In this document: positions 11,838 through 48,190 of the stretch, one piece after another
How the letters are laid out: each line of letters opens with the position of its first letter
Numbering within the stretch: the stretch's first letter is position 1
Origin: Myxococcota bacterium
GTDB taxonomy: Bacteria > Myxococcota_A > UBA9042 > PHBI01 > JAWLBL01
Reading direction: 5' to 3'
DNA: 64,000 bases
Assembly: GCA_041687695.1 (NCBI GenBank)
Contig: JAWLBL010000019.1
Location: 96,001 to 160,000, forward strand
The notes under the pieces: model-generated
What the model saw: only the letters and a program-made list of their open reading frames with translations
What the model was told of the DNA's origin: nothing
Databases searched by the model: none
Program-made: the position numbers and the translations under genes

Positions 11838-12416
11838 ATGAAGAAGGGCAGCAACCTCGACAAGCTCAAGGATCTCATGGGCATGGTCGACAAGAAGTTC
11901 GGCAAGGGGACCATCATGAACATGGACGATCAGGACAGCGCCAAGGTGAAGGTGTTCTCGACGGGCTCGCTGGGCCTCGACGCGGCGCTGGGCGTGGGCG
12001 GCCTGCCGGTCGGGCGCGTCATCGAGATCTACGGGCCCGAGTCCTCGGGCAAGACGACCCTGTGCCTGCACGCGGTCGCCGAGGTGCAGCGCGCGGGCGG
12101 GACCGCGGCGATCATCGACGCCGAGCACGCCCTGGATCTGTCGTACGCCGCGTCCCTGGGCGTGGACACCTCGCGCATGCTCGTCAGCCAGCCCGACTGC
12201 GGCGAGCAGGCGCTCGAGATCGCCGAGATGCTGACCCGCAGCGACGAGATCGACCTCGTGGTCGTGGACTCCGTGGCCGCCCTGACGCCTCGCGCCGAGA
12301 TCGAAGGCGAGATGGGCGACAGCCACGTCGGCCTGCAGGCCCGCCTGATGAGCCAGGCCCTGCGCAAGCTGACCGGCTCGGCCAGCAAGCACGGGACGAC
12401 CGTCATCTTCATCAAC
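11838..12416 (+). pseudogene. recA: recA 5' fragment (codons 1-193), interrupted by prophage
   Basis: [71 protein letters not shown]; RecA similarity stops abruptly after ATCAAC at 12416. Confidence 0.97.
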
Positions 12417-12437
12417 GAAAACCGTGGGTCTGGAAGA
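12411..12437. other. Left att junction (core ATCAAC + phage arm gaaaACCGTgggtcTGGAAGA)
   Basis: Phage arm is an imperfect inverted repeat of the arm at 47698-47716. Confidence 0.9.
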
Positions 12438-12682
12438 TGGTTGGGACTCCACCGTTCTCCGGTTTCGGCTGGTCGTCTAACCCGCGCAGTCGATTGCGCG
12501 ACCCGATCCCACTACGATCGGTGGTGACCGAGCCCAACCTCGACCCTGTCAACCCAACGAACCGTAACCCCCCGAAAGGAATACCAAGGGCTATCGGGGT
12601 CATGAGGGTGAACTTGACACCGTCACCCAGGCCGGGGTTCTTGGCCCCCATGCGTGGATGAGGAGAGAGGAGCCTCCAGTCG

Positions 12683-13138
12683 ATGACCAACGAAGAGCCC
12701 AGACTTGATCCGCTATCTCCGATTCAGAGAAGCGAGCGGATGTCAAGGGTTCGTTCGGGGAACACGAAGCCCGAGCTCGTGGTCCGCCGCATGGTTCATG
12801 CGATGGGGTACCGCTACCGCATCCACGGCAAGCGCGGGAAGACGCGACTTCCTGGCTCGCCCGACCTGGTCTTCGGTCCGAGGAGGAAGGTCGTCTTCGT
12901 GCATGGGTGCTTCTGGCATCGGCACGAGGGATGCCCCAACGACCGTCCGCCGAAGTCGCGCCAGGACTTCTGGCTCCCCAAGCTCGAGGCCAACCGTCAA
13001 CGCGACGAGGTCAACCTCAAGCTCCTGTGCGAGCTGGGGTGGGAGAGCCTGGTGGTATGGGAGTGCGAGCTGAAGAACCTTCCCGCTCTGGAGGAGAGGC
13101 TTCGGACCTTCATCGAAGGGAAAGCTGGTCGAGCATGA
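12683..13138 (+). CDS. vsr: Very short patch repair endonuclease
   Basis: RSERMSRVRSGNTKPEL, LPGSPDLVF, VFVHGCFWHRH, FWLPKLEANRQRD, LVVWECE. Confidence 0.93.
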   Translation: MTNEEPRLDPLSPIQRSERMSRVRSGNTKPELVVRRMVHAMGYRYRIHGKRGKTRLPGSPDLVFGPRRKVVFVHGCFWHRHEGCPNDRPPKSRQDFWLPKLEANRQRDEVNLKLLCELGWESLVVWECELKNLPALEERLRTFIEGKAGRA

Positions 13139-14334
13139 GAGCGGTCGAGTTGTTTGCGGGCGCGGGCGGTCTGGGGATCGGCACCGGTCGAGCGGGCTTC
13201 AAGCACGAGGTGGTGGTCGAGTGGGACCACGACGCCTGCGAGACGGTGCGCCACAACCAGCGGCGCCAGGTGCCTGACGTCCAGGGGTGGTCGGTCTTCG
13301 AGGGCGACGTACGGGCCTTCGACTTCGGGACCGTCGCGCCAGGCGTAACGCTGGTTTCGGGCGGTCCGCCCTGTCAGCCCTTCAGCCTGGGCGGCAAGCA
13401 TCGCGCCTTTAAGGACTCGAGGGACATGTTCCCGATGGCGGCCGAGGTCGTGCGTCAGCTGCGACCGGAAGTCTTCATCTTCGAGAATGTCAAGGGTCTT
13501 CTTCGAGAGGCCTTCTCGACCTACTTCGGCTACGTCATCCTCCGGCTCACTTATCCCGAGATGGTTCGCAAGGATCGAGAGGAGTGGCAGGACCACCTGG
13601 CCCGGCTCGAGCGACACCACACGGGCCCGCGACATGATGATGGTCTCCACTACCGGGTGGTCCACCAGCTCCTGAACGCGGCCGACTTCGGTGTTCCGCA
13701 GAGTCGGGAGCGGGTCTTCATCGTCGGGTTCAGGTCGGACCTACAGATGGAGTGGTCCTTCCCTCGAGCGACGCACTCGGCCGAGGCCCTGCTCCACAGC
13801 CAGTGGGTGACCGGCGAGTACTGGGACCAACACAAGATCTCGAAGAAGCGCCGACCTCAGCAGCCGACCCGGTACGCCGGCCGCATCACGCGCCTGAAGT
13901 CCACCGAGCCCGCCTGTCTTCAGTCGAGGTGGCTGACGGTTCGCGACGCCATCTGCGACCTGCCCGACCCTGAGCGCGAACCGCTGCTGGCTCAAGGAGT
14001 GCTGAACCACCGGTTCAACCCTGGAGCTCGGTCGTACCCAGGCCACACGGGCTCGCCTTGGGACTGGCCAGCCAAGACCCTGAAGGCGGGTGACCACGGA
14101 GTTCCGGGTGGTGAGAACATGCTGGCCCGAGAGGACGGCACGGTCCGGTACTTCACTGTCCGGGAGTCGGCGAGGCTCCAGACGTTCCCGGACAACTACG
14201 AGTTCCAGGGCTCGTGGTCGGAGGCGATGCGCCAGCTGGGCAACGCCGTCCCGGTCAAGCTCGCCCAAGCGGTCGCCGACTCGGTTCGATCCCACCTAGA
14301 GGATCGGAAAGCGGGTGGTCGAGGTGAGGCGTGA
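13135..14334 (+). CDS. DNA (cytosine-5) methyltransferase
   Basis: ATGA overlap with vsr; motif I FAGAGG, motif IV GGPPCQPFS, motif VI ENVKG, motif VIII QSRERVFIVG, motif X QLGNAVP. Confidence 0.95.
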   Translation: MRAVELFAGAGGLGIGTGRAGFKHEVVVEWDHDACETVRHNQRRQVPDVQGWSVFEGDVRAFDFGTVAPGVTLVSGGPPCQPFSLGGKHRAFKDSRDMFPMAAEVVRQLRPEVFIFENVKGLLREAFSTYFGYVILRLTYPEMVRKDREEWQDHLARLERHHTGPRHDDGLHYRVVHQLLNAADFGVPQSRERVFIVGFRSDLQMEWSFPRATHSAEALLHSQWVTGEYWDQHKISKKRRPQQPTRYAGRITRLKSTEPACLQSRWLTVRDAICDLPDPEREPLLAQGVLNHRFNPGARSYPGHTGSPWDWPAKTLKAGDHGVPGGENMLAREDGTVRYFTVRESARLQTFPDNYEFQGSWSEAMRQLGNAVPVKLAQAVADSVRSHLEDRKAGGRGEA

Positions 14335-14935
14335 ACCCGTCTTCAACCCGCTGGACAAGCGACACCTGGGCGAGAGCGTAGCCGAGGCGACGCTTCATCG
14401 GCCAGTCGGACCTCTTCCGCCCGAGGAGCCGTTCATCGCGGCGGGCGTGTATGCGATCTACTACGCTGGCGACTTTCCGGTTTACGAGCGCATCGCCGAG
14501 CGGAACCGAGAGGGGCGGTTCGAGGTCCCGATCTACGTCGGCAAGGCAGTGCCGGCTGGTGCTCGACGAGGCGGGTTCGGGCTCGGTGCTGACCCTGGAC
14601 AGGTCCTGTTCCGACGCTTGTGCGAACATGCCGAGTCCATCAGGGCGACACCAACTCTGGACATCGATGACTTCTACTGCCGGTACCTGGCGGTCGACGA
14701 CATCTGGATTCCGCTCGCGGAGTCAATGCTGATTGAGATGTTCCAGCCCCTCTGGAACCGGGTGGTCGACGGGTACGGGAACCACGACCCTGGACGCGGG
14801 CGACACGGCCAACAACGGTCCGCGTGGGACGTACTCCATCCTGGGCGGGTCTGGGCCGATAGGCTTCAGCCCGGCCGGGACATGGTCGACATCATCATGG
14901 ACATCAACGCCTACGTCGCAGGCAGAGGTTGGTAA
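14315..14935 (+). CDS. Eco29kI-family (GIY-YIG) type II restriction endonuclease
   Basis: GVYAIYY...PIYVGKAVP, RLCEH, IPLAESMLI, PLWN, GYGNHDPG; adjacent to C5-MTase. Confidence 0.85.
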   Translation: MVEVRREPVFNPLDKRHLGESVAEATLHRPVGPLPPEEPFIAAGVYAIYYAGDFPVYERIAERNREGRFEVPIYVGKAVPAGARRGGFGLGADPGQVLFRRLCEHAESIRATPTLDIDDFYCRYLAVDDIWIPLAESMLIEMFQPLWNRVVDGYGNHDPGRGRHGQQRSAWDVLHPGRVWADRLQPGRDMVDIIMDINAYVAGRGW

Positions 14936-16287: not shown

Positions 16288-16293
16288 AGAAGC

Positions 16294-16713
16294 TTACTCC
16301 TCAGGCTCCGTCAGCTTCTTCCTGACCTTGGTCAGCGCCAGGTCGATCGCGGCGTCAATCCTCATCTGAGCACGCTGGTCAGCTCTCACGTGCCGCAGGT
16401 GACCGTTCTGATACACCTCGTTGGCCAACGCGACCCGGCCCATCAGTGAGTCGACCGCGTCCTCGATCGAGTGGAGCGAGGCCGGCGTCGTGACCATCTC
16501 GATCTCAGGGTCGTACTCGAAGCAGGTGTGCTGGTCCGGTCCGTCGAAGGCGTCGATCCACTCGGGCGGTGGGGTGCGGGAGAGCTTGATGGCCAGCAGG
16601 ACGTTGAAGCCGTCGTAGACAGGAGCGCTGTAGAGCTCGCGGTCGATGGGCTCGATCTTCACGTCGTCAGCGATCAGGGTGATGGGTGTCCAGGTCGACA
16701 TGGTGGACTCCAT
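16294..16713 (-). CDS. Hypothetical protein
   Basis: 139-aa ORF with plausible codon usage, convergent with upstream gene. Confidence 0.5.
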   Translation of the reverse strand: MESTMSTWTPITLIADDVKIEPIDRELYSAPVYDGFNVLLAIKLSRTPPPEWIDAFDGPDQHTCFEYDPEIEMVTTPASLHSIEDAVDSLMGRVALANEVYQNGHLRHVRADQRAQMRIDAAIDLALTKVRKKLTEPEE

Positions 16714-16881
16714 TGTTCAGTGCGTGTTCGGCATCGATATGGTCCGAATGTGACTCGGCTGAGTAGCCAAGGCAAACTGTAGTCGCACTGGCTCCGCAGA
16801 CCAACGCCTTCGATGGGCGCGGCTGCTTGCATCTCAGGAAGTCTCTCCTCCGTTCCAAGGAACGGGACTACCCATCCACAA

Positions 16882-17385
16882 TCACTTCTTGATAACGTCC
16901 CTTTCCACTTCGTCCGCTGCAGCAGATACCTCCGTCAAGTAAAAGCTCGGAAGCTCCTCGTTTGCGAACGTGACTTCTTGCCCGTCTTCAATTCGGGATG
17001 TGGTGGTTCCATATGAAATCACTACCTTCGAGCGAGTACCGGTTGCCGCTGGAGTGAGCGAAGTTGGCCGTGGTGGGCTCGAATCGAGCTTCTGTTTGAG
17101 CGCTTCGTATCGCAGTTCAAGTTCCATCAGCTTAGTCTTTTCGTTGCTTCGCTTGCTAAAATCTGCCCTGATTGCGCGAGCAATCCCGGTAGAAATCAAG
17201 CTGGCCGACACCGCAGCAAAGATGATGGCCAATTCGACCAGCGACTTCGGAGCGCCCTCACCGGAAACTGTCCCGCCATACACCAGGAATGTGGTGCCGA
17301 CTATCGCCAATATCGGGACCACGCCACCAATTATTCCGATACCGGCTGCAAGTAAGTTGATTTGAAGCGGAGTGGACGGTCTCAT
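16882..17385 (-). CDS. Hypothetical two-TM protein (low GC)
   Basis: Two hydrophobic helices then coiled coil; ATG overlaps stop of the gene ending at 17382. Confidence 0.5.
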   Translation of the reverse strand: MRPSTPLQINLLAAGIGIIGGVVPILAIVGTTFLVYGGTVSGEGAPKSLVELAIIFAAVSASLISTGIARAIRADFSKRSNEKTKLMELELRYEALKQKLDSSPPRPTSLTPAATGTRSKVVISYGTTTSRIEDGQEVTFANEELPSFYLTEVSAAADEVERDVIKK

Positions 17386-17858
17386 TTAAGCATCCTACGG
17401 AGCAGTGCCTTCAGGAAATCCACGAGACCGCCGTAAAAGAGTCCCTTCACGAGGGCCATGCTGAGGCTCTCGCCGGCCAAGGCCGCGACAATCGGGCCAG
17501 CGGTCATGCCCGAAAAGGAGCCGACAAGCAAGTCATGGAGCAACCCTTCAGGCTCGGTCTTGGCGAGCCGGGCTGTGACAGCCTTGAGCCCCCGAGGGAA
17601 GAAGGCGTCAAGGATCTGATCCGTACGCTTGACATGGTCGTTGATCTTCGCATGCAGCGCGTCGATCTCCTGGGGTGAGGCGGCTGTAGTGAGATCGTCC
17701 CTCAACTGGTCGATGTCCGAATCGATCTGATCGAGCACAAAACTTTGCTCGGGCGAAGCCTTACGGCGCGCTTCGTTCAGCCGACGTCTCAGTCCGCTGA
17801 GCGCCGTGCGGCCTTCATCCACCTTCGTGACGGGCCTTGGTCTAGCCGGAACTGTCAT
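17382..17858 (-). CDS. Hypothetical protein
   Basis: Helical ORF with hydrophobic C-terminus; start uncertain. Confidence 0.45.
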   Translation of the reverse strand: MTVPARPRPVTKVDEGRTALSGLRRRLNEARRKASPEQSFVLDQIDSDIDQLRDDLTTAASPQEIDALHAKINDHVKRTDQILDAFFPRGLKAVTARLAKTEPEGLLHDLLVGSFSGMTAGPIVAALAGESLSMALVKGLFYGGLVDFLKALLRRMLK

Positions 17859-18086
17859 GGTCGGGCAACCGATCGTCCATGCCCATCGGGTCGTGCCAGC
17901 CGCTCCCCGCGTGCTGGCACGTACCACCGCCCCTCGGTGCTGGTGCGATCCTTACCAAGAACTCGGCTCGACGCAAGCGACCCGCCACGGCGAGCCCGCG
18001 CAATCGGATTGCGCGACCGGAGACTTGACTAACGCGGGCATCCGTGATCCGGTCGGACGTCTCGATCACGATCACGGAGGCTCAAC

Positions 18087-20145: not shown

Positions 20146-20273
20146 CTTTGACTCTGAGGAGGAACTTGTCACCCGTGACCGGAGGAGGCTACTCTCGTCG
20201 AGTAGACAAAGAAAAACCCCGGCAGGCTGCTTTGGTCGGTCGCCTACCGGGGTCAAAAGGAAAAGAAACTGAT

Positions 20274-20996
20274 ATGAAGAATACGGTCGCGCGTGTCGGC
20301 AGTCCAGCCTGCGCTTCGATTCAAAGAGACTTCAGCAAGGTGCCCTGGACCACGACGTTGATCCCTGAGGACCTGCTCGACTGGGCCGATGAGGACAAGG
20401 CCCGTGTTACAGCGTTCGCATTGGCCGCGCTGCTGTACTGTTCGAGTCGGGGCGGCGAGGTCACGAGATGCGTCGCGACGTCGGCCGAACTGCTAGGGAT
20501 CAGCAAGGCGACCAGTTGGCGAGCGGTCTCAATGCTCAAGGAGATCGGCATCGCTCGCGACGAGACCGGGACGTGGCACGGGATGCGCGTGCCCACTCGA
20601 GAATCCATCAGCGGCTGGCTGGCCATCCCGAGTGAGATCGTCGTCGACCCTCGCCGCAAGCCCATCGATATCATCTGGCTCGCGCGCTTGCTCCGCTTGT
20701 GCGAGCAGGAGAGCCAGGCAGCTGGGGGAGAGGACCGCCGCGAAATGGTTCACCCGCGCGCATGGGTCCTGAGGTCGCAGTACGCCGTCGCGACCAAGCT
20801 GGGCACCTCAAGGAACACCACCCACAAGGCGATCCAGAGGCTGGCCGAACTCGGCTACGTGGACGTGCGCGGACAGGGGGTGAACGTACAGCCCCACATG
20901 CCCCGGCAGCTCGGGCTCGTCGGTGGGATCGTCCAGGCCCTGCGCGGTCAGGCCGACGTTGTCCGGCTTGAGGATTGGCGGCGGCATGAGTCGTAA
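20274..20996 (+). CDS. Two-HTH protein, candidate replication initiator
   Basis: HTH-like VATSAELLGISKATSWRAVSML and SQYAVATKLGTSRNTTHKAIQRLAELGYV; directly downstream of iterons and A-rich tract. Confidence 0.6.
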   Translation: MKNTVARVGSPACASIQRDFSKVPWTTTLIPEDLLDWADEDKARVTAFALAALLYCSSRGGEVTRCVATSAELLGISKATSWRAVSMLKEIGIARDETGTWHGMRVPTRESISGWLAIPSEIVVDPRRKPIDIIWLARLLRLCEQESQAAGGEDRREMVHPRAWVLRSQYAVATKLGTSRNTTHKAIQRLAELGYVDVRGQGVNVQPHMPRQLGLVGGIVQALRGQADVVRLEDWRRHES

Positions 20997-21548
20997 GAAG
21001 TGCAATCGATTGCGCGAGTTTGATCGGGGATGATGAGTGCATCCGGTATCGGGAAACCCCACACCGGAGGCCTCCCGTGGACGACGTCAATCGCACCCGC
21101 ATGCGCGCGCTGATCGACCTTTGGAAGCGCAGCCGCGCACGCAGAAACCCAAAGCAACTCCGAGTGCTGATGCTCATGAAGAGGACCGGTGTACGCTGTC
21201 GCAAGTGCCGAAAGGAGATCCCTGTCGGGGACCGGGTGTTGTGGGATCCACGCGACAAGTCGTGTGAACATGAGCTCTGCCCAAATGTGATTGACTTCGT
21301 GGCCTGGCGAGAGGAACGGAATAGATAACCGCTCGAAAGCTGCGTATCTGTTGACGACTACGCCATCCGCCTGCGATCATTAGTCGTCGACTTCGGTCAT
21401 TGGGGATGCGTTAGTCCATGAGGTGGCGTATGGCGTGGGTGTTGGCTTGGCTTTGCTTGACCTGCGCGCCGCCTGGTATGGCCGACGTCGACCAGCAGCT
21501 TCGCAGCATCGAGTCACGGCTCGAGCTGCTCGCTCAGGAACTCGGGCG

Positions 21549-22052
21549 ATGAGCAGCAAGTGGTGCAGCGGAGCCTGTGGTGAGCTACTCCCGCACTCCC
21601 ATTTTGCGCGGGACAAGAGTAAGAAGGATGGCCTGTCGTCCCGGTGCCGGGCCTGCGCCAAGGCAGCGACCAAGGCCTGGACCCAGGCAAACCCAAAGCG
21701 AGCCGCCGCAGCCAAGCGTCGGGCCTACGAGCGCGGCAAGAAGCACGTGGTCTATCGGCTGACCCACGTCCCGACCGGCCAGTACTATGTGGGCTCGACG
21801 CACCAGCCCACCTCGCGCGAGCAGAGCCACCGCTACGCGCTACGAACCGCCACTCACTGGAACCCTGGCGTGCTGGCCATCATCGCCCGAGAGGGCTACC
21901 ACGCGGACGACTGGACGTTTGAGGTGGTCGCGGTGGGATCGTCGGCGGAGGAGGTCCGGAGGCTGGAGACGCAGGTCATTCAGGACCTGGAGCACGACTC
22001 CTTGGTCTTGAATCGGATGGCTGGTGGCGGCCCGATGGCGAGAGCCCACTGA
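21549..22052 (+). CDS. GIY-YIG endonuclease with N-terminal Cys zinc finger
   Basis: CSGAC...SKKDGLSSRCRAC; VVYRLTHVPTGQYYVGST; RRLE...LN. Confidence 0.7.
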   Translation: MSSKWCSGACGELLPHSHFARDKSKKDGLSSRCRACAKAATKAWTQANPKRAAAAKRRAYERGKKHVVYRLTHVPTGQYYVGSTHQPTSREQSHRYALRTATHWNPGVLAIIAREGYHADDWTFEVVAVGSSAEEVRRLETQVIQDLEHDSLVLNRMAGGGPMARAH

Positions 22053-23581: not shown

Positions 23582-25075
23582 GTGGGGTCGGGAAGACCCT
23601 GGTTGGCGCAGCGGAGACGAAAGCGAGCGGACCTTCGGCATTTCAACGCCGACACGCTCCAGTGCGACTTCGTCCGGATCTTCTGGGGCGACAAGGCCGA
23701 GAAGGCGCGTCAGCAGGTCCGCTTCGTGGTCGCGAGCGGGCGCCGGTACCAGCTTGCGTTGTGCGGGCGCGGGTTCGGGAAGAGCTGGTGTCTGGCGCTG
23801 AAGTGTCTCTGGCTCGCGCTGATCAACCCGGGCGTCGACGGCGCCATCCTCGGCCGGACCTATCAGGAGGCGAAGTCCGGGCCGCTCCTGACCAACCTGC
23901 TCGCGCACCTTGAGACGTTCGCGCAGGTGACGGGAATCGACCTCGTCGCCTCGTTCAACAAGGGCGAGAAGTGCCTGACCCTCACCAACGGGTCTCGAAT
24001 CCACATCCGTGGGTTCGAGACGATGGCAAAGCTCCGCTCGCTGTCGCTGGGGTGGGCGGTGGCCGACGAGCTCGACTGGAGCCAGTCGGTTGCGGCCGAC
24101 GTATTCGACTCGCTCCAGAAGCTGATTCGCGAGCCCTGCCCGATGCCCTGCCTGGCCCTCGGGACCTCCCCGGCCGGGATCTCTGGCATCGGCGGCCTGT
24201 TCCTCTCGCGCCTTAACGGGAATGACCCGGTCGAGGCAGCGCGCTACTTCGTGATCACCGGGACCGCCGAGGACAACCCGCACCTGGCCGGGACCGACTA
24301 CCTCGACACGATCCGACGCGGCAGCTCCAAGCGGAGCTGGATGCAAGAGGGCCTGGGGCAGGTCCTGACCGCGTCCGAGGCCGTCTTCCCCGAGTTCGAC
24401 TTGGCGAAGCACCGCATCCCGTGGACCTGGGACAAGTCGCTGGACTACCTGGTCGGGGTCGACTGGGGGACCTCGGCCGCGTCGGCGCTCTTCGTCCAGG
24501 TGCAGAAGGACGGGACGTGGATCGTGGCCGACGAGATTCGGGCGGTCGAGGGCTCGTATCAGCAGTTCCGTGACGCGCTGAGCCGCAAGGTCCGGTCCAT
24601 CGGGTACCTCCCGAGCTTGCTGGCGGCGGACAAGGCCGTGAAGTCGGAGAACGCCTGGGCGCGCGAGCACTTCACCGCGAAGTGCTGGGTGGCGACGCTG
24701 GACGGCGGTGCCGAGCAAGAGCTGGTCTACGGGCTCGAGTGCCTGCGGGCGCTGCTTGACCCAGCAGCGGACGACGAGCCGCCGCGTCTCCTGTTCGCCG
24801 ACTCCCTGGCCTACGACCCGCATGATCCGAACCCCGGAATCGTGGGCTCCCTCCTGTCCTACTCGTACATGAGGGGGCGGAATGGGGTGCTGACGAACAT
24901 CCCGATCAAGTCAGCGACCGACCCGTACAAGCACGCGGTTGACGCGCTCCGTTACCCGATCGTCGCGACGGCGAAGAAGCCTCAGTTCCACGGCGGACGC
25001 GCGCTGCCCTTTGCGGCGGCGGCGTCCCGTATCGACTTCAAGGCGTCCTACGAGCCCAAGGAGTTCGCTGCATGA
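23582..25075 (+). CDS. Terminase large subunit
   Basis: Walker A GRGFGKS, Walker B WAVADE, nuclease VGVDWG and HAVDALRY. Confidence 0.9.
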   Translation: MGSGRPWLAQRRRKRADLRHFNADTLQCDFVRIFWGDKAEKARQQVRFVVASGRRYQLALCGRGFGKSWCLALKCLWLALINPGVDGAILGRTYQEAKSGPLLTNLLAHLETFAQVTGIDLVASFNKGEKCLTLTNGSRIHIRGFETMAKLRSLSLGWAVADELDWSQSVAADVFDSLQKLIREPCPMPCLALGTSPAGISGIGGLFLSRLNGNDPVEAARYFVITGTAEDNPHLAGTDYLDTIRRGSSKRSWMQEGLGQVLTASEAVFPEFDLAKHRIPWTWDKSLDYLVGVDWGTSAASALFVQVQKDGTWIVADEIRAVEGSYQQFRDALSRKVRSIGYLPSLLAADKAVKSENAWAREHFTAKCWVATLDGGAEQELVYGLECLRALLDPAADDEPPRLLFADSLAYDPHDPNPGIVGSLLSYSYMRGRNGVLTNIPIKSATDPYKHAVDALRYPIVATAKKPQFHGGRALPFAAAASRIDFKASYEPKEFAA

Positions 25076-26550: not shown

Positions 26551-26598
26551 CGGCACCGATCCTATCGGACCACCCATGGTGAACCGGTGGAGGGTCTC

Positions 26599-27144: not shown

Positions 27145-27146
27145 CG

Positions 27147-27512
27147 ATGGCGGACGTGAAGCAGGACAAGGCGGCGAAGGCCGAGATGGCGCCGTCGGAG
27201 CGCACCAAGCGGTGGATCGAGTCGCGGAAGAAGGGGAGCGTGGCCGACGTGCTCGGCACGACCCCGGGATACCGCTACTACGTGGTCGACCCGAACGGTC
27301 GCAAGCCGGGGCCGCTGACCGCGCTCCGCTCGCGCCTGTACGAGAAGGGCTACGAGCTGTGCTCCAAGGTGGGGGACACCGCCTACTCGCCGACGGTGCC
27401 GGGCGGGGAGGTCTGGCGCATCTCCGAGGCCGACTACAAGGCGCTGTTCGCGGACCGGAAGGACCGTGACGACGCCGCGCGACGCGCCGCCGAGGCGCCG
27501 ACCGAAGCCTGA
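27147..27512 (+). CDS. Hypothetical head-module protein
   Basis: ORF with strong GC3 bias between scaffold and capsid genes. Confidence 0.55.
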   Translation: MADVKQDKAAKAEMAPSERTKRWIESRKKGSVADVLGTTPGYRYYVVDPNGRKPGPLTALRSRLYEKGYELCSKVGDTAYSPTVPGGEVWRISEADYKALFADRKDRDDAARRAAEAPTEA

Positions 27513-34867: not shown

Positions 34868-36493
34868 ATGGCGACGATCTACATCGATACGGTCGCGGGC
34901 TCGGACGCTTCGCCTGACGCCACCAACCCGGCGACGCCGGTGCAGACGATCGGCGAGGCGCAGACCCGGGCCACTGTCGGTGACAGCACGTTCGGGTCCG
35001 GCGACACCATCAAGTACCTGAACGCCGGCCCGGTCCCCCCGATCCCGATCAGCACGAAGGCCGGGCTCACCTACGAGGCGGCCGACGGCGGGACTGAGGT
35101 CGACGCGACCGGGCAGAGCAGGGGGGTCTACCTCTACAACGGCCAGACCGCGCGCGGCTTCACGGTCCACTCGTCGACCGGCGACGGCATCGTGGGCTAC
35201 ACAGCATCGACCAGCGCCCGGCGGGTTCGCGCAGTCGATTGCACCGCCCACGGGAACGCCGGCCATGGCTTCTCCATCGTGGCGCCGGAATCGGAGATCC
35301 ACCGCTGCATCGCCCACGACAACGGCGGGCGCGGGTTCCAGACCGGCAACAACGGCTCCTACACGCTCTCCGTGGTGCTCGCGTTCGACAACGGGACCGG
35401 GGGCGTGCGGGTCAGCGGCGCGGGGGCCGTGCTCGAGCACGCGACCGCCTTCGGGAACGCGGGCGCCACCTACGCGATCGAAGTCAGCTCGAACGCGGTG
35501 GCGCGCAGCTGCATCGCCGTCGACAACCCGACCGCCTACGGGATCGGGTCCGACCTGGACGACGTGACCAACAGCTGGTCGTTCAGCTCGAACCGGTCGC
35601 TCTACCACACGACGGCTGACTTCTTCGGCGGCGCGACCCCCACCGGCTGCGGGACCACGGACCCGCTGCTGACGGACCCGTTGGCGGGCGACTTCACCCT
35701 GCAGGTGGGCTCGCCCTGCATCGGGACCGGCGTCACCGGGCTGGCGACGGTCGACCTGGCCGGCGTCGACTTCACGGACCCACCTTCGATGGGGGCCTAC
35801 GAGGCGGCGCTGCCGCCGGACCCGCGCAACCGCTGGGACCCCCGGGTGGCGGGCCTGTACGAGGTCACGTCGGGCTGGTCGGGCTCCGTCAAGGTGACCG
35901 TCGACGGCGCCGAGACCTCCGTCACCCCGAGGGCGCGAACCAGCGCGGCCGAGGTCTGGGAAGCGGTGCTCGCGCGGGTCCGGCGCCTTCACGGGGAGGC
36001 GACCCCCTGGGAGGCCTGGGCCGACGCCACGGGGAAGCTGACCCTGGTCGGAGAGGAACTGACCGAAGCGGGGTTCAGGCTGGCCTTCACCGGCAACGCC
36101 GGAGAGCGGCTGGGGTTCGATGAGTCAGGCTACGAGGGCCAGCTCCAGTACACGTCCGAGGCCGGCCCGGACGGGCTCGCCGCGTTCGGGGTCGACCTGA
36201 TCGCCGACGGGGCGCCGGCAGTGGCGTTGGCTGAGGCGGCGGCAGTCGCCGATGGGTCGCTCGCCCCGAGCACGCGGAACACGGCCAGCACGGTCACGCT
36301 TTGGGTCTACGACGCGGCGGTGACCGCGTTCGGCTACCGGGCCTTGGTCGGGCGGGTGTTCGACATCCTCGGGCCGGGCGCTCGTTGGTTGGGGCGGCTG
36401 CAGGTGCGCGGGCATCGGGTGGTGAAGCGGGGGCAGTCGTCGGGCGCGCCGGTCATGCTGGCGGAGCTGCGCTGCGAGGCGGTGGCCCTGTGA
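34868..36493 (+). CDS. Tail protein with parallel beta-helix domain
   Basis: Repeats AHGNAGHGF, AHDNGGRGF, AFDNGTGG, AFGNAG; DFTLQVGSPCIGTG...MGAYE cap motif. Confidence 0.65.
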   Translation: MATIYIDTVAGSDASPDATNPATPVQTIGEAQTRATVGDSTFGSGDTIKYLNAGPVPPIPISTKAGLTYEAADGGTEVDATGQSRGVYLYNGQTARGFTVHSSTGDGIVGYTASTSARRVRAVDCTAHGNAGHGFSIVAPESEIHRCIAHDNGGRGFQTGNNGSYTLSVVLAFDNGTGGVRVSGAGAVLEHATAFGNAGATYAIEVSSNAVARSCIAVDNPTAYGIGSDLDDVTNSWSFSSNRSLYHTTADFFGGATPTGCGTTDPLLTDPLAGDFTLQVGSPCIGTGVTGLATVDLAGVDFTDPPSMGAYEAALPPDPRNRWDPRVAGLYEVTSGWSGSVKVTVDGAETSVTPRARTSAAEVWEAVLARVRRLHGEATPWEAWADATGKLTLVGEELTEAGFRLAFTGNAGERLGFDESGYEGQLQYTSEAGPDGLAAFGVDLIADGAPAVALAEAAAVADGSLAPSTRNTASTVTLWVYDAAVTAFGYRALVGRVFDILGPGARWLGRLQVRGHRVVKRGQSSGAPVMLAELRCEAVAL

Positions 36494-37155
36494 GGTACCT
36501 GATCGGATGGCTCGACAGCGGCTTGCCCGGCTACCGGTCGCTGACCATCGGAGGGACCGGGCACACGATCCCCGACGCCTACCAGCGGGTGACGGAGGCG
36601 GTCGACGCCCTCTCGAGCGAGCTGGCGGCGTCCGGGTGGAGCGCCGAGGTATTGGCGAACGGCCGCGTCAGGCTCACCGGCTCATCGGCCGACCTGACCT
36701 GGCCGGACCGGCTCGGATGGCTGTTGGGGTTCGAGACCGAACCCGGCGACAGCGACACCGGGAAGACCTCGTTGACGAGCTCGTCGGTCCCGCCCGGGAT
36801 CGTCCCGCTCTACGGGGCCGACGTGGAGGCGGTCGACCTGACGCAAGAGGAAGACCTGAGCGTGGATCGCCACCTTCGCGGGCACGGTTACGTGTGGGGC
36901 GGGGCGGCGGTCTGGCGGGTTCGTGCGATGGCGTCGGCGGAGGCGGTTCGCGCCCTGAAGGCGGGATGGGTCCTCAGGGGAAAGGTCACGCTGAGCCCGA
37001 CCTTGCACCCCGCGACCGCCGGGGCCTGGGACGCGGAGACCAACCCGGGCGGCTACTTGGACGGTCACGTCATGGGGTTGGAGTCGCTGACCTGGCGCGG
37101 TGACGCGCGGCTGGTCGCCGACCTGACCCTGCTGTTGGTGAGGGAACCCGCATGA
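36490..37155 (+). CDS. Putative tail protein
   Basis: GTGA-coupled ORF in tail module. Confidence 0.55.
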   Translation: MRYLIGWLDSGLPGYRSLTIGGTGHTIPDAYQRVTEAVDALSSELAASGWSAEVLANGRVRLTGSSADLTWPDRLGWLLGFETEPGDSDTGKTSLTSSSVPPGIVPLYGADVEAVDLTQEEDLSVDRHLRGHGYVWGGAAVWRVRAMASAEAVRALKAGWVLRGKVTLSPTLHPATAGAWDAETNPGGYLDGHVMGLESLTWRGDARLVADLTLLLVREPA

Positions 37156-39689
37156 CGGACGCGACGTTCAGCCGAGCCCTCCAGCGGGGCCATTCGACCG
37201 TCTACAGCCTGACCATCGAAGGCATCCCCTACGTGTGGGTGGAGCGGGAGTACCAGCAGACTTCGGCGTCGGGGGCACCGGCGGTGCCGGCCGGCTATCT
37301 GGGGGCGGTGCCGGCGCTGTTGGTCGACGACGGCCAGAGCATCAGCGTGGAGCTGAAGCGCGAGAGCGGGATCGCCTCGGGGAAGGCCTGGGACATCGTC
37401 CTGAGCTTCGCGGCCCTGGAAGACGCGGAGCTGCTGTCGACGTTGTTCCGCCGGCCGGAGGGGCGGGCGCAGCTGACGGCGGACGTGGCGGGCGACGACA
37501 CCGTCCTGACGGTCGACGACACGGCCGAGGTCGACGACGCCACGCACCTGTACCTGGGGCGCGAGTGCCTGGCCGTCTCGGGGTCGACGGCGACGACCCT
37601 GACCGTCACGCGGGGCGTCGTCGGGTACCCCTACGCCTATCAGGCGCAGAGCCCGTCCAGCTACCGATGGGTGACGACCAGCCCGACCGTCTGGAAGGGC
37701 CGGCTGGTGACGCTGACGGAGCACCTGGTCTCGCCGGAGGGCCGGCTACTCGACGGGACGGTGGGGCAGGTCGGGGACTACTCGCGGGTGCTCTGGCGGG
37801 GCTACCTGGACGGCACCCCGAAGGTGACCGCGAAGGGGATGCAGCTGCGGGCGCAGGCGCTGGTGCGGCTGGCCTCGCAGGACATCGGGTTCGAAGTGTC
37901 GCTCGAGACGGCGACAAGCCTCACCGGGTCGATGTTCGAGCACCACCTGGACTACCCGATCGTGGTCACGTCGGCCGACACGGTCCGGGTCCGCATCGTG
38001 TGGGACGAAGGGCTCAACTCGGGCGACAACGTCTACACGGTCCCGCAGCTGGACCCGTCGTTCACCCCGACGGTGATGACGTACAGCGAATGGTGGGACC
38101 TGGTTCGGGCGGACCTCGAGGCCCTGGTCGCGCTGGAACCGTGGTTCAAGGGGCCTGGCTCGCTGTTCGGCTACCACACGTTCCACGAGATCGGCCCCGG
38201 GAAGGTCGACCATTCCAACCTCATCCTGAAGGAGGATGGGTACGCGCTCGCGGTGACGGTCACGGCCGATGAGGGACGGTGCTACTGGTACGAGCCCGGC
38301 GCCTACCTGGGCTCCGTCTCGCACACGACGGTCATGGGGGACCTGCACATCCCGGTGGGGCCGACGTTGGGGACGGGCTGGCTGCCCGTGCGGGTGATCG
38401 CCGGGGAGGGGATTCAGGACTACGACATCGGGGACAGCGGGATCGGCGTCGTCGACGGTGACCCGAAGGAGATCCTCCGATGGTCGGAGGCGCTCGACCT
38501 GGGCAGCGACACCATCCGAATGATCTACATCGCCGAGCGGACGATGAACCTCACGGAGCCGGCCGAGCTGTGGGCGGACGGGGTGAGGATCAAGGCGCTG
38601 TCCGGCTACTCGGGGACGCTGATGGATGGTCTGCTGACCCTGTTGACCAGCTCGGGGACCGGGCTGCGCTCGGCCACCTGGGACACCTTGGAACTCGGGA
38701 TGGGGCTCGGGGTCCCGGAGGCGATGATCGATGTCGACGGCGACGGGGTCACCGCGATCAAGGGCGGGCTCGAGGCGCACGCGGAGCTGGACCCCACCGC
38801 CATCCTGGTCGCCGAGGGGCGCAGCTCCATCGAATCGCTCGCCGGTGGCTGGTTGTCGCTGTCGGGGCTCTGCCTGTCGCAGGCGGACGGGCTTCTGACG
38901 ATGGTGGAGACGGATCCGGCCGATGACCCCGACGCGGTGGTGATCACGGCCGACGATGTCCTGGTCGAACGCCTCGAGCCAGAGGCGGAGGTCGACACCC
39001 CGAACGAGGTGCGGATCGACCCGAGCGGGATTGGGGTGGAGCGGACGCAGCTCCTGTTCCGGGACACGACCTCGGTTCAGGCGGAGGCGCCTCGGACGCG
39101 CGACCTGTCGGTTCCCGGGATTGACCCCATCCTGGCGGCCGTCTACGCCCACGGGCTGATCTCTCGCGGGCTCGGCCAGAGCATCGTCCGGCTTCGCCTC
39201 GCCCCGTGGGCGCGGGTTCAGCCGGGCCAGCGGGTCCGGCTCTCGCTGTCGCACCCGATGCTCTACGACTGGAACGTCGGGGCGCGGGGGCCGGCGGTGG
39301 TGAACGCGCTCGCGCTGGGCGTCGAGACCAACCTGGTCGACGGCACGCACGCGGCGACCTTCATCCTGGCCGGGCTGCAGGACGTGGCCCGCTACCTCTG
39401 CCCGTGCGCCGAGGTAGCGACGGTCGACACGGTCCGGGACGTGACGGTCGACGAGCCCCAGTGGTTCGCGGTCGATGACGTGGTCACGCTCTACACGCCG
39501 GGCGCCGAAGCGAGCGAGCAAGTCACGCGGACCGTGACGGCCATCGCGGGCGCGACGCTGACGTTCGACGCCGACCATCCGGCCTGGCTGGCGTCCGGCG
39601 CCATCGTCACGTACCCGCCGCACGGGGCCGCGAACGACGACCAGCGGACCCACGCCTACGTGCGACCCGACACCCACTGGAGCGCGTGA
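37152..39689 (+). CDS. Putative tail tip/baseplate protein
   Basis: 845 aa, coupled to neighbours, position in tail module. Confidence 0.6.
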   Translation: MTDATFSRALQRGHSTVYSLTIEGIPYVWVEREYQQTSASGAPAVPAGYLGAVPALLVDDGQSISVELKRESGIASGKAWDIVLSFAALEDAELLSTLFRRPEGRAQLTADVAGDDTVLTVDDTAEVDDATHLYLGRECLAVSGSTATTLTVTRGVVGYPYAYQAQSPSSYRWVTTSPTVWKGRLVTLTEHLVSPEGRLLDGTVGQVGDYSRVLWRGYLDGTPKVTAKGMQLRAQALVRLASQDIGFEVSLETATSLTGSMFEHHLDYPIVVTSADTVRVRIVWDEGLNSGDNVYTVPQLDPSFTPTVMTYSEWWDLVRADLEALVALEPWFKGPGSLFGYHTFHEIGPGKVDHSNLILKEDGYALAVTVTADEGRCYWYEPGAYLGSVSHTTVMGDLHIPVGPTLGTGWLPVRVIAGEGIQDYDIGDSGIGVVDGDPKEILRWSEALDLGSDTIRMIYIAERTMNLTEPAELWADGVRIKALSGYSGTLMDGLLTLLTSSGTGLRSATWDTLELGMGLGVPEAMIDVDGDGVTAIKGGLEAHAELDPTAILVAEGRSSIESLAGGWLSLSGLCLSQADGLLTMVETDPADDPDAVVITADDVLVERLEPEAEVDTPNEVRIDPSGIGVERTQLLFRDTTSVQAEAPRTRDLSVPGIDPILAAVYAHGLISRGLGQSIVRLRLAPWARVQPGQRVRLSLSHPMLYDWNVGARGPAVVNALALGVETNLVDGTHAATFILAGLQDVARYLCPCAEVATVDTVRDVTVDEPQWFAVDDVVTLYTPGAEASEQVTRTVTAIAGATLTFDADHPAWLASGAIVTYPPHGAANDDQRTHAYVRPDTHWSA

Positions 39690-42781: not shown

Positions 42782-42939
42782 TAGTGGTCGGAATGGGGAA
42801 TTCTGCAACTTCTTGGGTTGACGGCGGCCCATCTAGCCGCCATCGTTGTAAGCCTCCAACGACGACGCGTTCGGCGAAACGAGCCCTCCGGGGGGAGGGG
42901 CGTGCCGACCTCGTTACCGCCTCCGGCCCCAGTGGCCGA
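42782..42939 (+). repeat. ~155-bp diverged copy of host nrdJ upstream region (59447-59601)
   Basis: 51-bp identity 42857-42907 = 59522-59572, with colinear similarity on both sides. Confidence 0.9.
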
Positions 42940-44063: not shown

Positions 44064-44780
44064 TCAGCTGCCCTTGGAACGGTCAATCTTTGCCTGGAGT
44101 GTCGCCCTGCGCTCTCGGCTCCGAGCGGGCTGCACGTAGAAGAACTCCAAGAGGTCATCGAGGACTTGGAGCATGAGCTGAGCCTCGTTCTCTTCGATGT
44201 CGAGGATCTCACCTGTCACGCCGTCGGCCTTCAGGTGAACCGCGATGTTGCCCAGCTGCCGGACGTGGTCCAGTTCCTCGTGGAGGTGCGCCGGGAACCG
44301 CTGTTCGGCGAGCTTCAGGAGCCCGGCAAGGTTGGTCCGAGGCGAGGCGCTGGTGGCCTCGAGCAGGATGGCTTCCATGCACCGGCGGGAGAGCGCCGCC
44401 GAGGCCCGAGGGCTGATGTCGAGGATGGCCCAAGCCTCGCGCCAGTCCTTCGCGATCCCCTCGGGCACGGCCGGGTCTGGGGCGCGAGAGCGGAAGCGGG
44501 GATAGATGACCTGGTCAGGCCAGGGAGTACCGGAAGCGAGACCGATGTCGGCTCCGATGACCAGGATCGGGAAGTCACAGACTGGACATAGGAATCCGAC
44601 GAGCGCCCACTCGCTCCGGCCTCGACTGCAGACCCAGTGAAAGGTCAGCGGAACCCACTCGCTCTCCTGCTGCCAGCTCTGGCCACCACGGACGCGCATG
44701 GGCTCGCCCAGGTTGACCTTCTCTTGACAGTGTGGACAGGTCACCCGCGAGCCCTGATAGTAGACGTTCTCGTCGTTCAT
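44064..44780 (-). CDS. DUF4145-like (HEPN-related) protein with Zn-ribbon, copy 1
   Basis: CPHC...CPVC; DWREAWAILDISPRASAALSRRCME; VRQLGNIAVH (R-x4-6-H-like). Confidence 0.75.
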   Translation of the reverse strand: MNDENVYYQGSRVTCPHCQEKVNLGEPMRVRGGQSWQQESEWVPLTFHWVCSRGRSEWALVGFLCPVCDFPILVIGADIGLASGTPWPDQVIYPRFRSRAPDPAVPEGIAKDWREAWAILDISPRASAALSRRCMEAILLEATSASPRTNLAGLLKLAEQRFPAHLHEELDHVRQLGNIAVHLKADGVTGEILDIEENEAQLMLQVLDDLLEFFYVQPARSRERRATLQAKIDRSKGS

Positions 44781-44944: not shown

Positions 44945-45319
44945 TTGACAGGGTGGGATCTCGCGATCCTCATCAGAGCTATGAGACCTACCCACGACGT
45001 CCCTGCATCCGTGCTCGAGCTGATGGCCCAGCAGACGAGCTGGACCTGGTGCATCGAGGTCCTGACCGGATGGCTCAACAGGACCAAGCGCTGCTACACG
45101 GTCTACGACGTATACTGCTTCCTGGTCGAGCACAGGCCCGGTGAGGCGGTCGACTACGACTACATCGCCCGTCGCCTCAGCCAGAGCAGTACGCCCGGCA
45201 CCTACTACTGGGTGGCCTTCGGTCCCGACCATGAGTCGGCTCGGCAGTACTACGAGGCCCTGCGTGGGCGTCTGTCGCTGGCCGAGGTCGACGGAGGCGA
45301 GCTGTCGCTGACGAACTAG
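44945..45319 (+). CDS. Hypothetical protein
   Basis: ORF between the two DUF4145-like paralogues, on the opposite strand; start uncertain. Confidence 0.45.
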   Translation: MTGWDLAILIRAMRPTHDVPASVLELMAQQTSWTWCIEVLTGWLNRTKRCYTVYDVYCFLVEHRPGEAVDYDYIARRLSQSSTPGTYYWVAFGPDHESARQYYEALRGRLSLAEVDGGELSLTN

Positions 45320-46017
45320 GTAGCCTTCGAGGTCTTGGCCTTCAGGGCAGCTTGCCGCTGAGCACGCTTGGCCGGCTGGACGTAGTAGAAGTCCAGCAAC
45401 TCATCCACGATGGTGAGCAGCGCCTCGGCCTCGTCCTGGTTGATCTCCATGATGGATCCCGTCGTGGAGTCCGACTTGAGATGGACTGCGATGTTGCCCA
45501 TCTTCCGAACCTCGTCGAGGTGCTGTTCGAGGTCTGACGGCAGCGTGGGCCCGACGCTGGTGATCATGTCGACCAGCCGAGTCTTCGGGTTCTGCTTGCC
45601 AGCGTCAACGAGGGTCGCCTCGATGCAGCGACGCGAGAGCGCCGCCGAGGCCCGTGGGCTCAGGTCGAGGATCGCCCATGCCTCCTGCCAGTCCTTGGCG
45701 ATGTCGGCAGGTACGACTGGGTCTGGCGCGCGGACTCGAGCGGCAGGGTGGACGATCCGTTCGTCAAGGACTTTCCCACCTGTGATGTCGTTTTGCACGG
45801 TTCTCAGGACGAGCACGAGTTGATCGCAGACTGGGCAGACGTAACCCCTTAGTTCTTGACGCTGCTGGCTTCTGTTCCGTTGCCAGGTGAGGAACAAGGA
45901 CACGAGGGTCTGTCGGTCGCGGTCGTCGAGCGCAAAAACCTGTGTGTATTCGGGTAGGTTGATGGGCTGCTCGCAGTGGGGGCAGGTAACCCGGGCCTTC
46001 GGCTCGTAGCTCGTCAT
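45316..46017 (-). CDS. DUF4145-like (HEPN-related) protein with Zn-ribbon, copy 2
   Basis: RBS AGGAGAGG; CPHC...CPVC; DWQEAWAILDLSPRASAALSRRCIE; VRKMGNIAVH. Confidence 0.75.
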   Translation of the reverse strand: MTSYEPKARVTCPHCEQPINLPEYTQVFALDDRDRQTLVSLFLTWQRNRSQQRQELRGYVCPVCDQLVLVLRTVQNDITGGKVLDERIVHPAARVRAPDPVVPADIAKDWQEAWAILDLSPRASAALSRRCIEATLVDAGKQNPKTRLVDMITSVGPTLPSDLEQHLDEVRKMGNIAVHLKSDSTTGSIMEINQDEAEALLTIVDELLDFYYVQPAKRAQRQAALKAKTSKAT

Positions 46018-46139
46018 GTTCCTCTCCTAGGGGGCCAGAGCTTAGCGGACCCTCAAGGATCCGCAACGTCGTTCGGGACGGACGAACCTTGATCGGGTCT
46101 GTCGTCTTCCGCTACTCAGAGCTGAGCGGAGGAACGCCA

Positions 46140-47747
46140 ATGACCGAGCCCACGCAATCGACTGCGCGACGAGCTGTCATCTACGCCCGTGTCTCGAGCC
46201 AGGGGCAGCGGGACCGCCAGACCATCGAGTCCCAGCTCCGGGTCTTGCCCGAGTTCGTCGAGTCCCGGGGGTGGGAGCTGGTCAGGCCCACCGACACCTA
46301 TATAGACGATGGGTTCTCGGCCAAGGCCGGGGGACTCGACGACCTCAAGGGCCGGGCCCAGCTGCTCTCGGATGCCGAGGCGGGCCTCTTCGACCTGGTG
46401 GCGGTGGTCGACCAAGACCGGCTCACCCGATCGGAGGACTTGGTCGAGCGCGGCTACATACTGGGTTCGCTCCAGCGGGCTCAGATCCAGATCGCGGTTC
46501 AGTCCACCGGCCAGGTGCTCGACCTCTCGAGTTCCGAGGGCGACCTGCACGCCAGCCTCCAGGGGTTCTTCAGCGCCGAGGAGAACCGCAAGCGTCGGAA
46601 GCGAACTCTCGATGGCAAGCAGACCGCGATCAAGCGTGGCCGTAAGCCCTCCGGCCCAACCCCCTACGGCTACAACTACGATCGAACCACCGGTACCTGG
46701 ACCATCGACCAGGACCAGGGTGCGATCGTACGCGAGCTCTTCGAACGGGTCGCTGGCGGCGAGTCCTGCCACAGCCTTGCCAGGGAGCTGAACGAGCGAG
46801 GGGTCCCTCGCCCCAGGAGCGGCGCCTGGCAGCAGGCGCGGGTCAACCAGATCGTCCGCCAGCGCGCCTACATCGGGACCTACACGGCCGACAAGAAGAG
46901 GAACCTGACCATCGAGGTCCCGAGGATCGTGAGCGACTGGCTGTTCGAGCAGGCCGAGATCGCCCTGCAGGCCAACCGGTTCCACCTCAACCCCAAGACC
47001 AACCACTACAACCTGGCCCAGGGGATCGGGGTCTGCGGGGTCTGCGGCCAGGACATCCTGCTTACGGGCAACAAGCTCAAGAAGCGGTACTACGTCTGCC
47101 GGTCCAAGAAGGGGCTGGGCAAGGACGTCGAGCGCTGCCCCAACCCGATGCGGCAGGTCGAGCCCACCGACGAGAAGATCTGGGCGCAGGTCCGCTACGT
47201 GCTCGAGCAGCCCGACCTCCTGGAGGGAGCGGTCCAGCTCCGGATCGATCGGGCCAACGAGACCGACTGGGAGGCCGAGCTCAAGGAGACCGAGTCCAAG
47301 CTGGCCGCCATCGATCGCCGGGCCCAGAACGTCCTCAACTCCTACATGAAGGGGTTGATCGCCGACGACGTCTACGAGCAGCACCTGGTGTCGACGCAGC
47401 GGGACCGAGAGGGGCTGGAGCGCCAGCGCGATCTGGCCAACCAGAACCTGCTGGCCGCCAAGAGGACCGAGCAGGAGACCCGTGCTCTTCGGGCGACCGT
47501 CGAGAAGCTCAAGCAGAACCTCGACACCGCGTCACCAGAAGAGCGCCAGAAGCTCGTCAGGATGCTGATCCCAGGCCGGGACGGGTACCGGATCACGTTC
47601 GAGCAGGACGGGACCCTGACCATCATGGGGATGGTGGATGCCGGGACACCCGCATCGAACAAGGCTGGATCAGGGGAAGGAGAGGGCGGCTCGGGTGTCT
47701 TCCACGATGACGGTGTATCAACCAGCTGCGACAGAAGATCGGGGTGA
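46140..47747 (+). CDS. Large serine recombinase (phage integrase)
   Basis: YARVSS catalytic Ser, DRLTRS, PYGY, recombinase domain, Zn-ribbon CGVCG...YYVC...C, coiled coil; ORF runs across the right att junction. Confidence 0.95.
47698..47722. other. Right att junction (phage arm TCTTCCAcgatgACGGTgt + core ATCAAC)
   Basis: Inverted-repeat partner of 12417-12437; recA coding resumes at the core. Confidence 0.9.
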
Positions 47748-48190
47748 TGTTCGGCAACCCCGAGACGACGACCGGGGGCAACGCCCTCAAGTTCTACTCG
47801 AGCGTCCGCCTGGACATCCGGCGCATCGGGGCGCTCAAGAACGGCGACCAGGCCATCGGCAACCGCACCCGGGTGAAGGTGGCCAAGAACAAGGTCGCGC
47901 CGCCGTTCCAGACCTGCGAGTTCGACATCGTCTACGGACGCGGGATCTGCCAGGCGGGCGAGCTGCTCGACATGGGCGTCGAGGTCGGCGTCATCGACAA
48001 GTCCGGCGCCTGGTACTCGTGGCGCGAGGGGCGCCTGGGCCAGGGGCGCGAGAAGGCGCGCGAGGCCCTGATGGCCGACGAGGCGCTGTTCCGGACCCTG
48101 CGCGCCGAGACGATGGCGCGCCGGCTGGGGCGGCCCGCGCCGGTGGTCGAGGTGGCGGGCGACGACGGCATCGAGGCGCAGGCCGCCTGA
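47717..48190 (+). pseudogene. recA: recA 3' fragment (resumes [18 protein letters not shown]...)
   Basis: [49 protein letters not shown]; in frame with the 5' half after excision. Confidence 0.97.

Follow-up and report, generated by a model that had tools for sequence, protein, structure and literature searches.

The recA gene in a 64,000-nt stretch of DNA from an uncultured soil bacterium of the phylum Myxococcota (assembly GCA_041687695.1, contig JAWLBL010000019.1, positions 96,001–160,000; hereafter the window) is interrupted after codon 193 by an insert of 35,306 bp. Very probably this insert is a temperate phage with a presumably non-contractile tail, which was integrated by a large serine recombinase (LSR) at a conserved site in one particular recA paralogue, i.e., the copy located between comM and ssb, and which is excisable in principle. 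Coordinates are positions in the window, and the features described for the recA locus and the prophage are on the + strand unless stated otherwise. The source genome, a metagenome-assembled draft of 7.97 Mb in 63 contigs, is labeled G000.

The N-terminal part of recA (codons 1–193; 11838–12416) translates without a stop into 193 RecA residues that include the Walker A motif GPESSGKT and terminate with TVIFIN, after which the reading frame continues past the junction into phage DNA and reaches a stop at 12659–12661. The C-terminal part (codons 194–348 and stop; 47723–48190) encodes 155 RecA residues comprising the L2 loop region and the C-terminal domain. The Pfam RecA model (PF00154) matches the first piece at profile positions 3–186 and the second at 187–261, followed by RecA_C; since positions 186 and 187 abut, the two pieces are exact complements. 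Joined in silico, they yield 193 + 155 = 348 residues in frame and without a stop. The hexanucleotide ATCAAC is present at both junctions, as the attL core at 12411–12416 and the attR core at 47717–47722, and the insertion point follows nucleotide 579 of recA, with the insert extending from 12417 to 47722 when one core copy is counted. An original prediction for the window had proposed a recA interrupted after codon 193 and resuming at 47723, ATCAAC at both ends, an insert of 35.3 kb, and an uninterrupted RecA of 348 residues upon joining of the halves, all of which agrees with the translations, the abutting profile matches and the measured length. By E. coli numbering, the break would fall immediately ahead of the conserved Gln that opens loop L2 (Q194). 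The sequence around the insertion site belongs to the best-conserved parts of RecA.

The insert carries its own integrase gene at the attR end (46089–47747), coding for an LSR of 552 residues in the integrated state. The Resolvase (PF00239), Recombinase (PF07508) and Zn_ribbon_recom (PF13408) domains each exceed the Pfam cut-off, and the protein matches PHROG 95 (E 8e-83); the best named match in NCBIfam is XisF, far under the cut-off.

The same codon is interrupted in a second genome. Among 401 genomes surveyed from the phylum, two contain a recA that is split, within a single contig, at profile position 186/187, i.e., G000 and G307, a member of another family; an integrase search of the same genomes returned a single relative above the generic level, also in G307, with 39–40% identity. 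The YARVSS motif close to the N-terminus, the serine of which we take to be the catalytic nucleophile, is identical in the two enzymes. G307 contains an intact, cinA-linked recA plus a second recA that is split by an insert of 45,367 bp, which occupies the same AA dinucleotide in the same Asn codon as in G000. This insert is a different phage, featuring a Mu-like portal and head, baseplate J and a DnaB helicase, and the only one of the 39 open reading frames (ORFs) of the G000 prophage with a match in it is the integrase. Relative to G000, the G307 integrase is located at the opposite junction and on the opposite strand. Intact orthologues of the G307 split gene, i.e., empty sites, occur in its own genus and family at 79–90% identity.

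An alignment of the G000 and G307 integrases fetched 28 metagenome and 79 viral loci, and in four of these 107 (L115, L118, L146 and L147) a RecA N-terminal half ending exactly at residue 193 is positioned tail-to-tail after the integrase; a fifth junction contig (L116) stops 24 nt past the junction, in the reverse complement of the recA core. In five viral contigs (L143, L144, L145, L148 and L165; CheckV completeness 69–100%) the integrase is flanked on both sides by phage DNA, and none of the five records contains RecA above the cut-off. The integrated forms and these attP forms interleave in one group of the integrase tree, and recA was found beside none of the nine more distant recombinases in that tree. 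The original prediction had proposed a search for LSR elements at IFIN|Q in other genomes, and this search has now returned G307 and the five metagenome or viral junction contigs. The combined loci point to an integrase clade that uses the recA site in either orientation on unrelated phage backbones, and they suggest that splitting of recA by phages is a recurrent, in principle reversible, knockout of a repair gene. An exact 25-nt phage arm gave no match in the viral contigs, and the integrase alone, compared with representative genomes, retrieved only Clostridia-type recombinases at 20–29% identity (short segments up to 40%). In one Clostridia metagenome-assembled genome (JAZNSI010000031.1; L044), an intact recA lies ~3.5 kb from a serine recombinase of 23% identity, which was taken as coincidence.

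The crossover most likely takes place at AA, i.e., at 12414–12415 in attL and 47720–47721 in attR, corresponding to positions 1 and 2 of the Asn193 codon (I-F-I-N|Q). This assignment is based on the dyad symmetry of the rebuilt attP, which is centred on AA in both G000 and G307 and comprises 15 of 30 arm positions in the former and 14 of 30 in the latter; the attB values are 9/30 and 11/30, respectively. The core shared by the two ends is 6 bp in G000 (ATCAAC) and 3 bp in G307 (CAA), and there are no long direct repeats at the ends. In serine integrases the central dinucleotide alone sets the polarity, which fits AA in both phages. The attP of the free form L143 displays a TT-centred dyad with 18 of 24 matching positions, compared with a shuffled maximum of 16; for the other four attP-form loci, the dyad in 24-nt arms was not above shuffles. 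The sequence CTGG-TT-(A/C)CAG is present at the expected place in L143, L145 and L148, and these are free attP forms.

The attP is contained within the 3′ end of the integrase gene, so that integration swaps a conserved C-terminal tail for a host-encoded end. In G000 the integrase ORF crosses attR and stops 8 codons into recA DNA; the DNA for the tail that is specific to the excised form, 22 codons ending in FRLVV followed by a stop, is found at the attL end (12415–12480), in a frame that is continuous across the core. The prophage form of the G307 integrase stops at the junction, and the excised form would gain 16 codons ending in LRLVA. In G307 and in all five junction contigs, the integrase stop codon TGA combines the T of the core with GA from the host. 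The C-termini of the five attP-form integrases are LKVVA, IRLVA, IRVVA, LRVVA and RVVAYA; the conserved tail follows the pattern R/K-L/V-V-A/V, and such a tail terminates none of eight outgroup integrases. The free-phage integrase thus has a conserved hydrophobic tail that is removed by integration. The tail ends (RLVA/RVVA) resemble the LAA/LVA degradation tags of the ssrA type.

In the mechanism that we propose, the LSR of a temperate phage would have recombined the dyad-symmetric attP with an attB inside the recA of the uncultured Myxococcota bacterium, with the crossover at the AA that opens the Asn193 codon. The free phage would make an integrase with the hydrophobic tail and the prophage an integrase with a host-encoded end, and excision by the integrase, with the help of a putative directionality factor, would leave recA exactly restored. 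The sequences show the anatomy of the locus, its recurrence, the existence of attP forms and the absence of decay; the base pair of the crossover, excisability, the part played by the tail and any gain for phage or host are inferred.

The genome of the host holds three RecA matches, namely the two halves and an intact copy on contig C27, directly downstream of cinA, with which the halves share 67% and 59% identity. The original prediction had guessed that a second recA would exist and that myxobacteria often have two; the genome search located the cinA-linked copy, and genomes in the class of the host typically have two recA matches. The insertion can be tolerated by the host because this second recA is intact. 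Upstream of the split gene is a comM/yifB-type Mg-chelatase-like AAA ATPase (10156–11745; Pfam Mg_chelatase, ChlI and Mg_chelatase_C; NCBIfam TIGR00368 YifB, 553 bits, above the cut-off), and downstream is an ssb paralogue (48213–48653; Pfam and NCBIfam), one of three SSB genes in the genome. In nine relatives from the same order or class, the copy closest to the split recA is intact and comM-linked without exception, with ssb downstream in seven, and the non-target copy is cinA-linked in 8 of 11 loci (G000 and G307 counted). The split recA also clusters with the comM-linked copies in the tree. The target of the insertion is specifically the comM-recA-ssb paralogue. The equivalent of attB in the cinA-linked recA differs at 4–5 right-arm positions (QIRMK instead of QLRQK), which may explain which paralogue is chosen by the phage.

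The comM(yifB)-recA-ssb arrangement is in itself a conserved three-gene module across the Myxococcota order or class examined (loci L222–L238), separate from cinA-recA. It has the look of a module dedicated to recombination or DNA uptake and is seemingly unstudied in that capacity.

The two paralogues also differ in their upstream regions. A scan with the Myxococcus xanthus LexA motif (PMC9705874; ≤2 mismatches; L249 left out) identified a LexA-box-like site 75–350 nt upstream of the non-target recA in 8 of 14 loci, compared with none of 15 for the target-type copy. The M. xanthus SOS box is absent near the split recA of G000 at ≤2 mismatches, and absent in L001 at ≤3 mismatches; as the recA genes of G000 itself gave no box, assignment of the paralogues by this feature draws on the relatives. 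In M. xanthus, the copy with a LexA box is recA2; recA1 lacks the box, is weakly expressed and not required for growth, and its product supports strand exchange and the cleavage of LexA (PMC7029660). The phage target resembles M. xanthus recA1 by the missing LexA box alone; the published accounts give no recA neighbours, and a pairing with RecA1 and RecA2 through gene neighbours was set aside for this reason.

The two halves show no sign of degeneration. Of 89 alignment columns without variation among 20 intact RecAs, none is changed in the split gene of G000 and two are changed conservatively in that of G307 (D>E and V>I), compared with 0–5 for intact genes in a leave-one-out comparison. Furthermore, measured against the outgroup G340, the nonsynonymous divergence (dN) amounts to 0.253 for the split gene of G307 and to 0.248 and 0.258 for its intact orthologues. 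The dN/dS comparison put forward in the original prediction thus gives no excess of dN, and the synonymous divergence (dS) is saturated.

This saturation (dS of 0.8 to >2.5 among the available orthologues) is one of several observations that weigh against the proposed mechanism or parts of it. Recent insertion and continued selection are inseparable because of it, and pairwise dN/dS was consequently dropped as a test of relaxed selection. Moreover, neither an attB nor an attP junction is present in the source assembly. Among public sequencing runs, 13 were listed, none of them an RNA run with the organism and each with a fraction of at most 0.08 of the sequence words; they matched only in short, divergent recA pieces of other organisms, none of which crosses the junction, and these matches speak neither for nor against excision. 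The shared cores (6 bp in G000 and 3 bp in G307) would permit crossover positions other than AA. In the integrated form L147 an LRVV motif is located ahead of the crossover and retained after integration, for which reason the tail rule is not uniform. Finally, searches of the insert with Pfam, PHROGs, PADLOC and NCBIfam brought up neither a repressor nor genes for lysis or for a directionality factor, and the prophage could be defective; recombination directionality factors have no common family.

Among the alternatives, a regulated switch of the kind termed active lysogeny would involve excision without lysis under DNA damage, starvation or development, which turns on a recombination-proficient RecA and is followed by re-integration. 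The exact in-frame join and the full conservation of the halves are in agreement with this proposal, as is the absence of a LexA-type box from the target paralogue (0/15 vs 8/14), in which it matches M. xanthus recA1 as described (PMC7029660). An indirect observation comes from G285, in which the sole recA is broken at the core across contigs C254 (start) and C242 (end) with an overlap of 6 nt (loci L110 and L111). A mixture of occupied and empty sites would yield such a break on both sides; this is consistent with the switch, G285 is not counted as a case, and it may mean that phages of this kind also target hosts with a single recA. However, their virion genes mark the elements as full phages, whose excision may be plain lytic induction, and empty sites in sister species suit sporadic infection better than a fixed developmental element. 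We regard a switch as rather unlikely.

A dead-end knockout, in which the prophage is cryptic or has lost the ability to excise, leaving a recent recA pseudogene that is still free of decay, would account for the lack of attB and attP in the assembly and of a recognisable directionality factor, lysis gene or repressor, and the saturated dS leaves room for it. In addition, the prophage includes a 158-bp copy, 85% identical, of a host intergenic repeat, which may signal some residence time. Nevertheless, long ORFs run without interruption through the prophage, no domain is missing from the integrase, none of the 89 invariant RecA positions is altered, and related phages occur in the free attP form with an estimated completeness of 94–100%, which makes a dead end distinctly improbable.

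A benefit to the phage can likewise be put forward only with considerable doubt. By splitting the recA1-like paralogue without a LexA box, the phages might silence the recombination-proficient, LexA-cleaving RecA during lysogeny, thereby blunting the SOS response and recombination and controlling the induction of themselves and of rivals, and the degron-like tail might disfavour re-integration after excision. The fusion of RecA(1–193) to phage-encoded residues may interfere with the other RecA, and excision would restore RecA exactly when DNA repair is needed; dominant-negative truncated RecA proteins exist in E. coli. We see little likelihood for such a scheme at present.

An assembly artefact, i.e., a chimeric contig linking a phage to two recA pieces in a metagenome-assembled draft of 63 contigs, is hardly conceivable, as both junctions are on one contig, at the same codon and with a shared core, and the same junction is present in six other independent assemblies; with the same codon interrupted beside a related integrase in G307 and five independent contigs, chance and misassembly are ruled out.

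Integration of a temperate phage by an LSR into the comM-linked recA is related to several known systems. Gene-splitting elements with serine integrases include skin in sigK, phi10403S in Listeria comK and the fdxN element (XisF). SPbeta, which uses SprA/SprB, is described as splitting the host gene spsM, which is restored on excision (PMC5499854). Like these four elements, the G000 prophage has a three-domain LSR (Resolvase, Recombinase, Zn-ribbon) and a short core, lacks long repeats, and interrupts a coding frame that exact excision would rebuild. In contrast to them, its target is recA, one of two paralogues, in Myxococcota, the site is common to an integrase clade on unrelated phages, the attP is within the integrase gene, and the system is known here from sequence alone.

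The closest counterpart with respect to the target is the recA mobile element (RME) of Vibrio cholerae S24, an element of ~33 kb that is inserted site-specifically in recA and was shown to excise as a circle in Vibrio, restoring an uninterrupted recA (Rapa et al. 2015, PMC4405046). As described there, the RME occupies nucleotide 494 of 1065, is bordered by 9-bp inverted repeats and codes for a "phage integrase" and XerS; it is presented as an island, not a phage, and it brings its own recA and umuDC, which replace the lost function (PMC4405046). Its integrase is here taken as the tyrosine type. Both are mobile elements of similar size inside recA, whereas the present insert is a phage that uses a serine recombinase and is located at nucleotide 579, unlike the RME with its "phage integrase" at 494. 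A replacement recA as in the RME was not detected, i.e., there is no RecA match among the insert ORFs with Pfam or PHROGs, and none of the three RecA matches of the genome is inside the insert.

With respect to attP, the myxophage Mx8 and the mycobacteriophage BPs provide precedents. Mx8 integrates at attB1/attB2, which are tRNA-linked. In this phage, which has a tyrosine integrase, attP lies within the intP coding sequence and integration gives the integrase gene a new 3′ end; the work of Tojo (1996) and Magrini (1999), as summarised in a later account, further indicates that the 3′-end change alters specificity (PMC6070905). The G000 phage and Mx8 are alike in having attP inside the integrase ORF and an integrase C-terminus that is altered on integration, and they differ in that the former has serine-recombinase domains rather than a tyrosine integrase and targets recA rather than attB1/attB2. 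For BPs, which uses a tyrosine recombinase, attP is reported to be inside the repressor gene, so that the viral repressor has a C-terminal degradation tag that is lost on integration, and the integrase is described as tagged as well (PMC3694055). In both BPs and the present phage, attP is within a phage gene and the viral and prophage proteins differ at the C-terminus, but the gene that is crossed is the integrase gene itself here and the repressor gene in BPs.

No published serine-integrase phage in recA was found in the literature searched or in the supplements examined of the large recombinase survey PMC10083194, with subscription-only papers outside the search. What is new is the combination of recA as a target, an integrase clade dedicated to recA across unrelated phages, and an attP that remodels the integrase. 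RecA serves as the sensor through which most temperate phages are induced, and it drives homologous recombination. A recA-dedicated integrase clade would represent a natural, in principle reversible, knockout of one RecA paralogue in myxobacteria, among which M. xanthus is the only species investigated for how the two RecAs share their tasks. The split gene would offer a direct handle on the function of the comM-recA-ssb module, the highly conserved recA site a new attB for serine integrases, and the remodelled C-terminus a serine-integrase example of an integrase altered upon integration. For annotators, a "truncated recA" in such genomes may be one half of a restorable gene.

The remaining candidates for a split recA in the survey were rejected. 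In G268, G244 and G395 the pieces are in adjacent frames, as expected for frameshifts; in G330, G391 and G215 contigs end at other positions, and G079, G314, G328 and G150 contain fragments broken elsewhere. The candidate in G190 is a C-terminal piece that starts from profile position 176, at a contig end, and in G135 a contig overlap of ~127 nt starts 8 nt before AA, which a strain variant could explain too. Both recA genes of G268, an assembly of 20 contigs, are in two out-of-frame pieces (C3:495278–496061 and C12:638160–638946), probably owing to frameshift errors of the assembly.

The prophage body (12417–47716) is single-copy in the assembly and is delineated by its matches to Pfam and PHROGs and by its G+C content, which is 60–71% inside the insert and 71–75% in the flanks. 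The early region includes a winged-helix DNA-binding or replication-initiator-like protein (20148–20996) and an endonuclease VII/GIY-YIG nuclease (21423–22052), both matched by Pfam and PHROGs. Three leftward genes (16294–17927, − strand) face the rightward early genes and might by their position represent an immunity region; searches against Pfam, PHROGs, PADLOC and NCBIfam placed none of them in a family. The large terminase subunit is encoded at 23582–25075 (PHROG 2, E 2e-28; Pfam Terminase_6N). The head module (25072–28471) comprises a probable portal that is assigned by position and has no family match (25072–26550), an unnamed gene (26576–27469), and a capsid-like protein (27587–28471; Phage_capsid_4, 23.2 bits, under the cut-off of 27). 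The tail module consists of a tail tube (30432–31640; Pfam Phage_tube_2), a tape-measure-like protein with a weak match (32338–34863; PHROG 3779, E 2e-4), a beta-helix protein (34868–36493; Pfam Beta_helix) and a large distal tail protein (37152–39689). Sheath and baseplate-J families were not found among the insert ORFs with Pfam and PHROGs, and the tail is on this basis likely to be non-contractile. The original prediction of a serine-integrase prophage is substantiated by the terminase, the tail tube and the three-domain integrase. Its description as apparently intact is supported in part, with the portal placed by position and lysis, repressor and directionality genes not identified.

Both ends of the prophage hold defence-type cargo. 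On the left is a type II restriction-modification system with a Vsr nicking endonuclease, a C5-cytosine methyltransferase and an Eco29kI-like endonuclease (12683–14935; Pfam and PADLOC). On the right are two paralogous genes on the − strand that match Pfam DUF4145 and the PD-T7-4 model in PADLOC and are candidate defence genes (44064–44780, E 7e-13; 45316–46017, E 3e-15).

The 158-bp stretch of the prophage (42782–42939) is 85% identical to a segment of the host flank (59447–59601) just upstream of a ribonucleotide reductase gene, and it could be a dispersed host repeat that entered the prophage. The reductase is a class II (B12-dependent) enzyme of 1310 residues (59613–63545), with a barrel domain that is matched in two stretches and a TSCPD domain; its extra length might be due to an insertion such as an intein.

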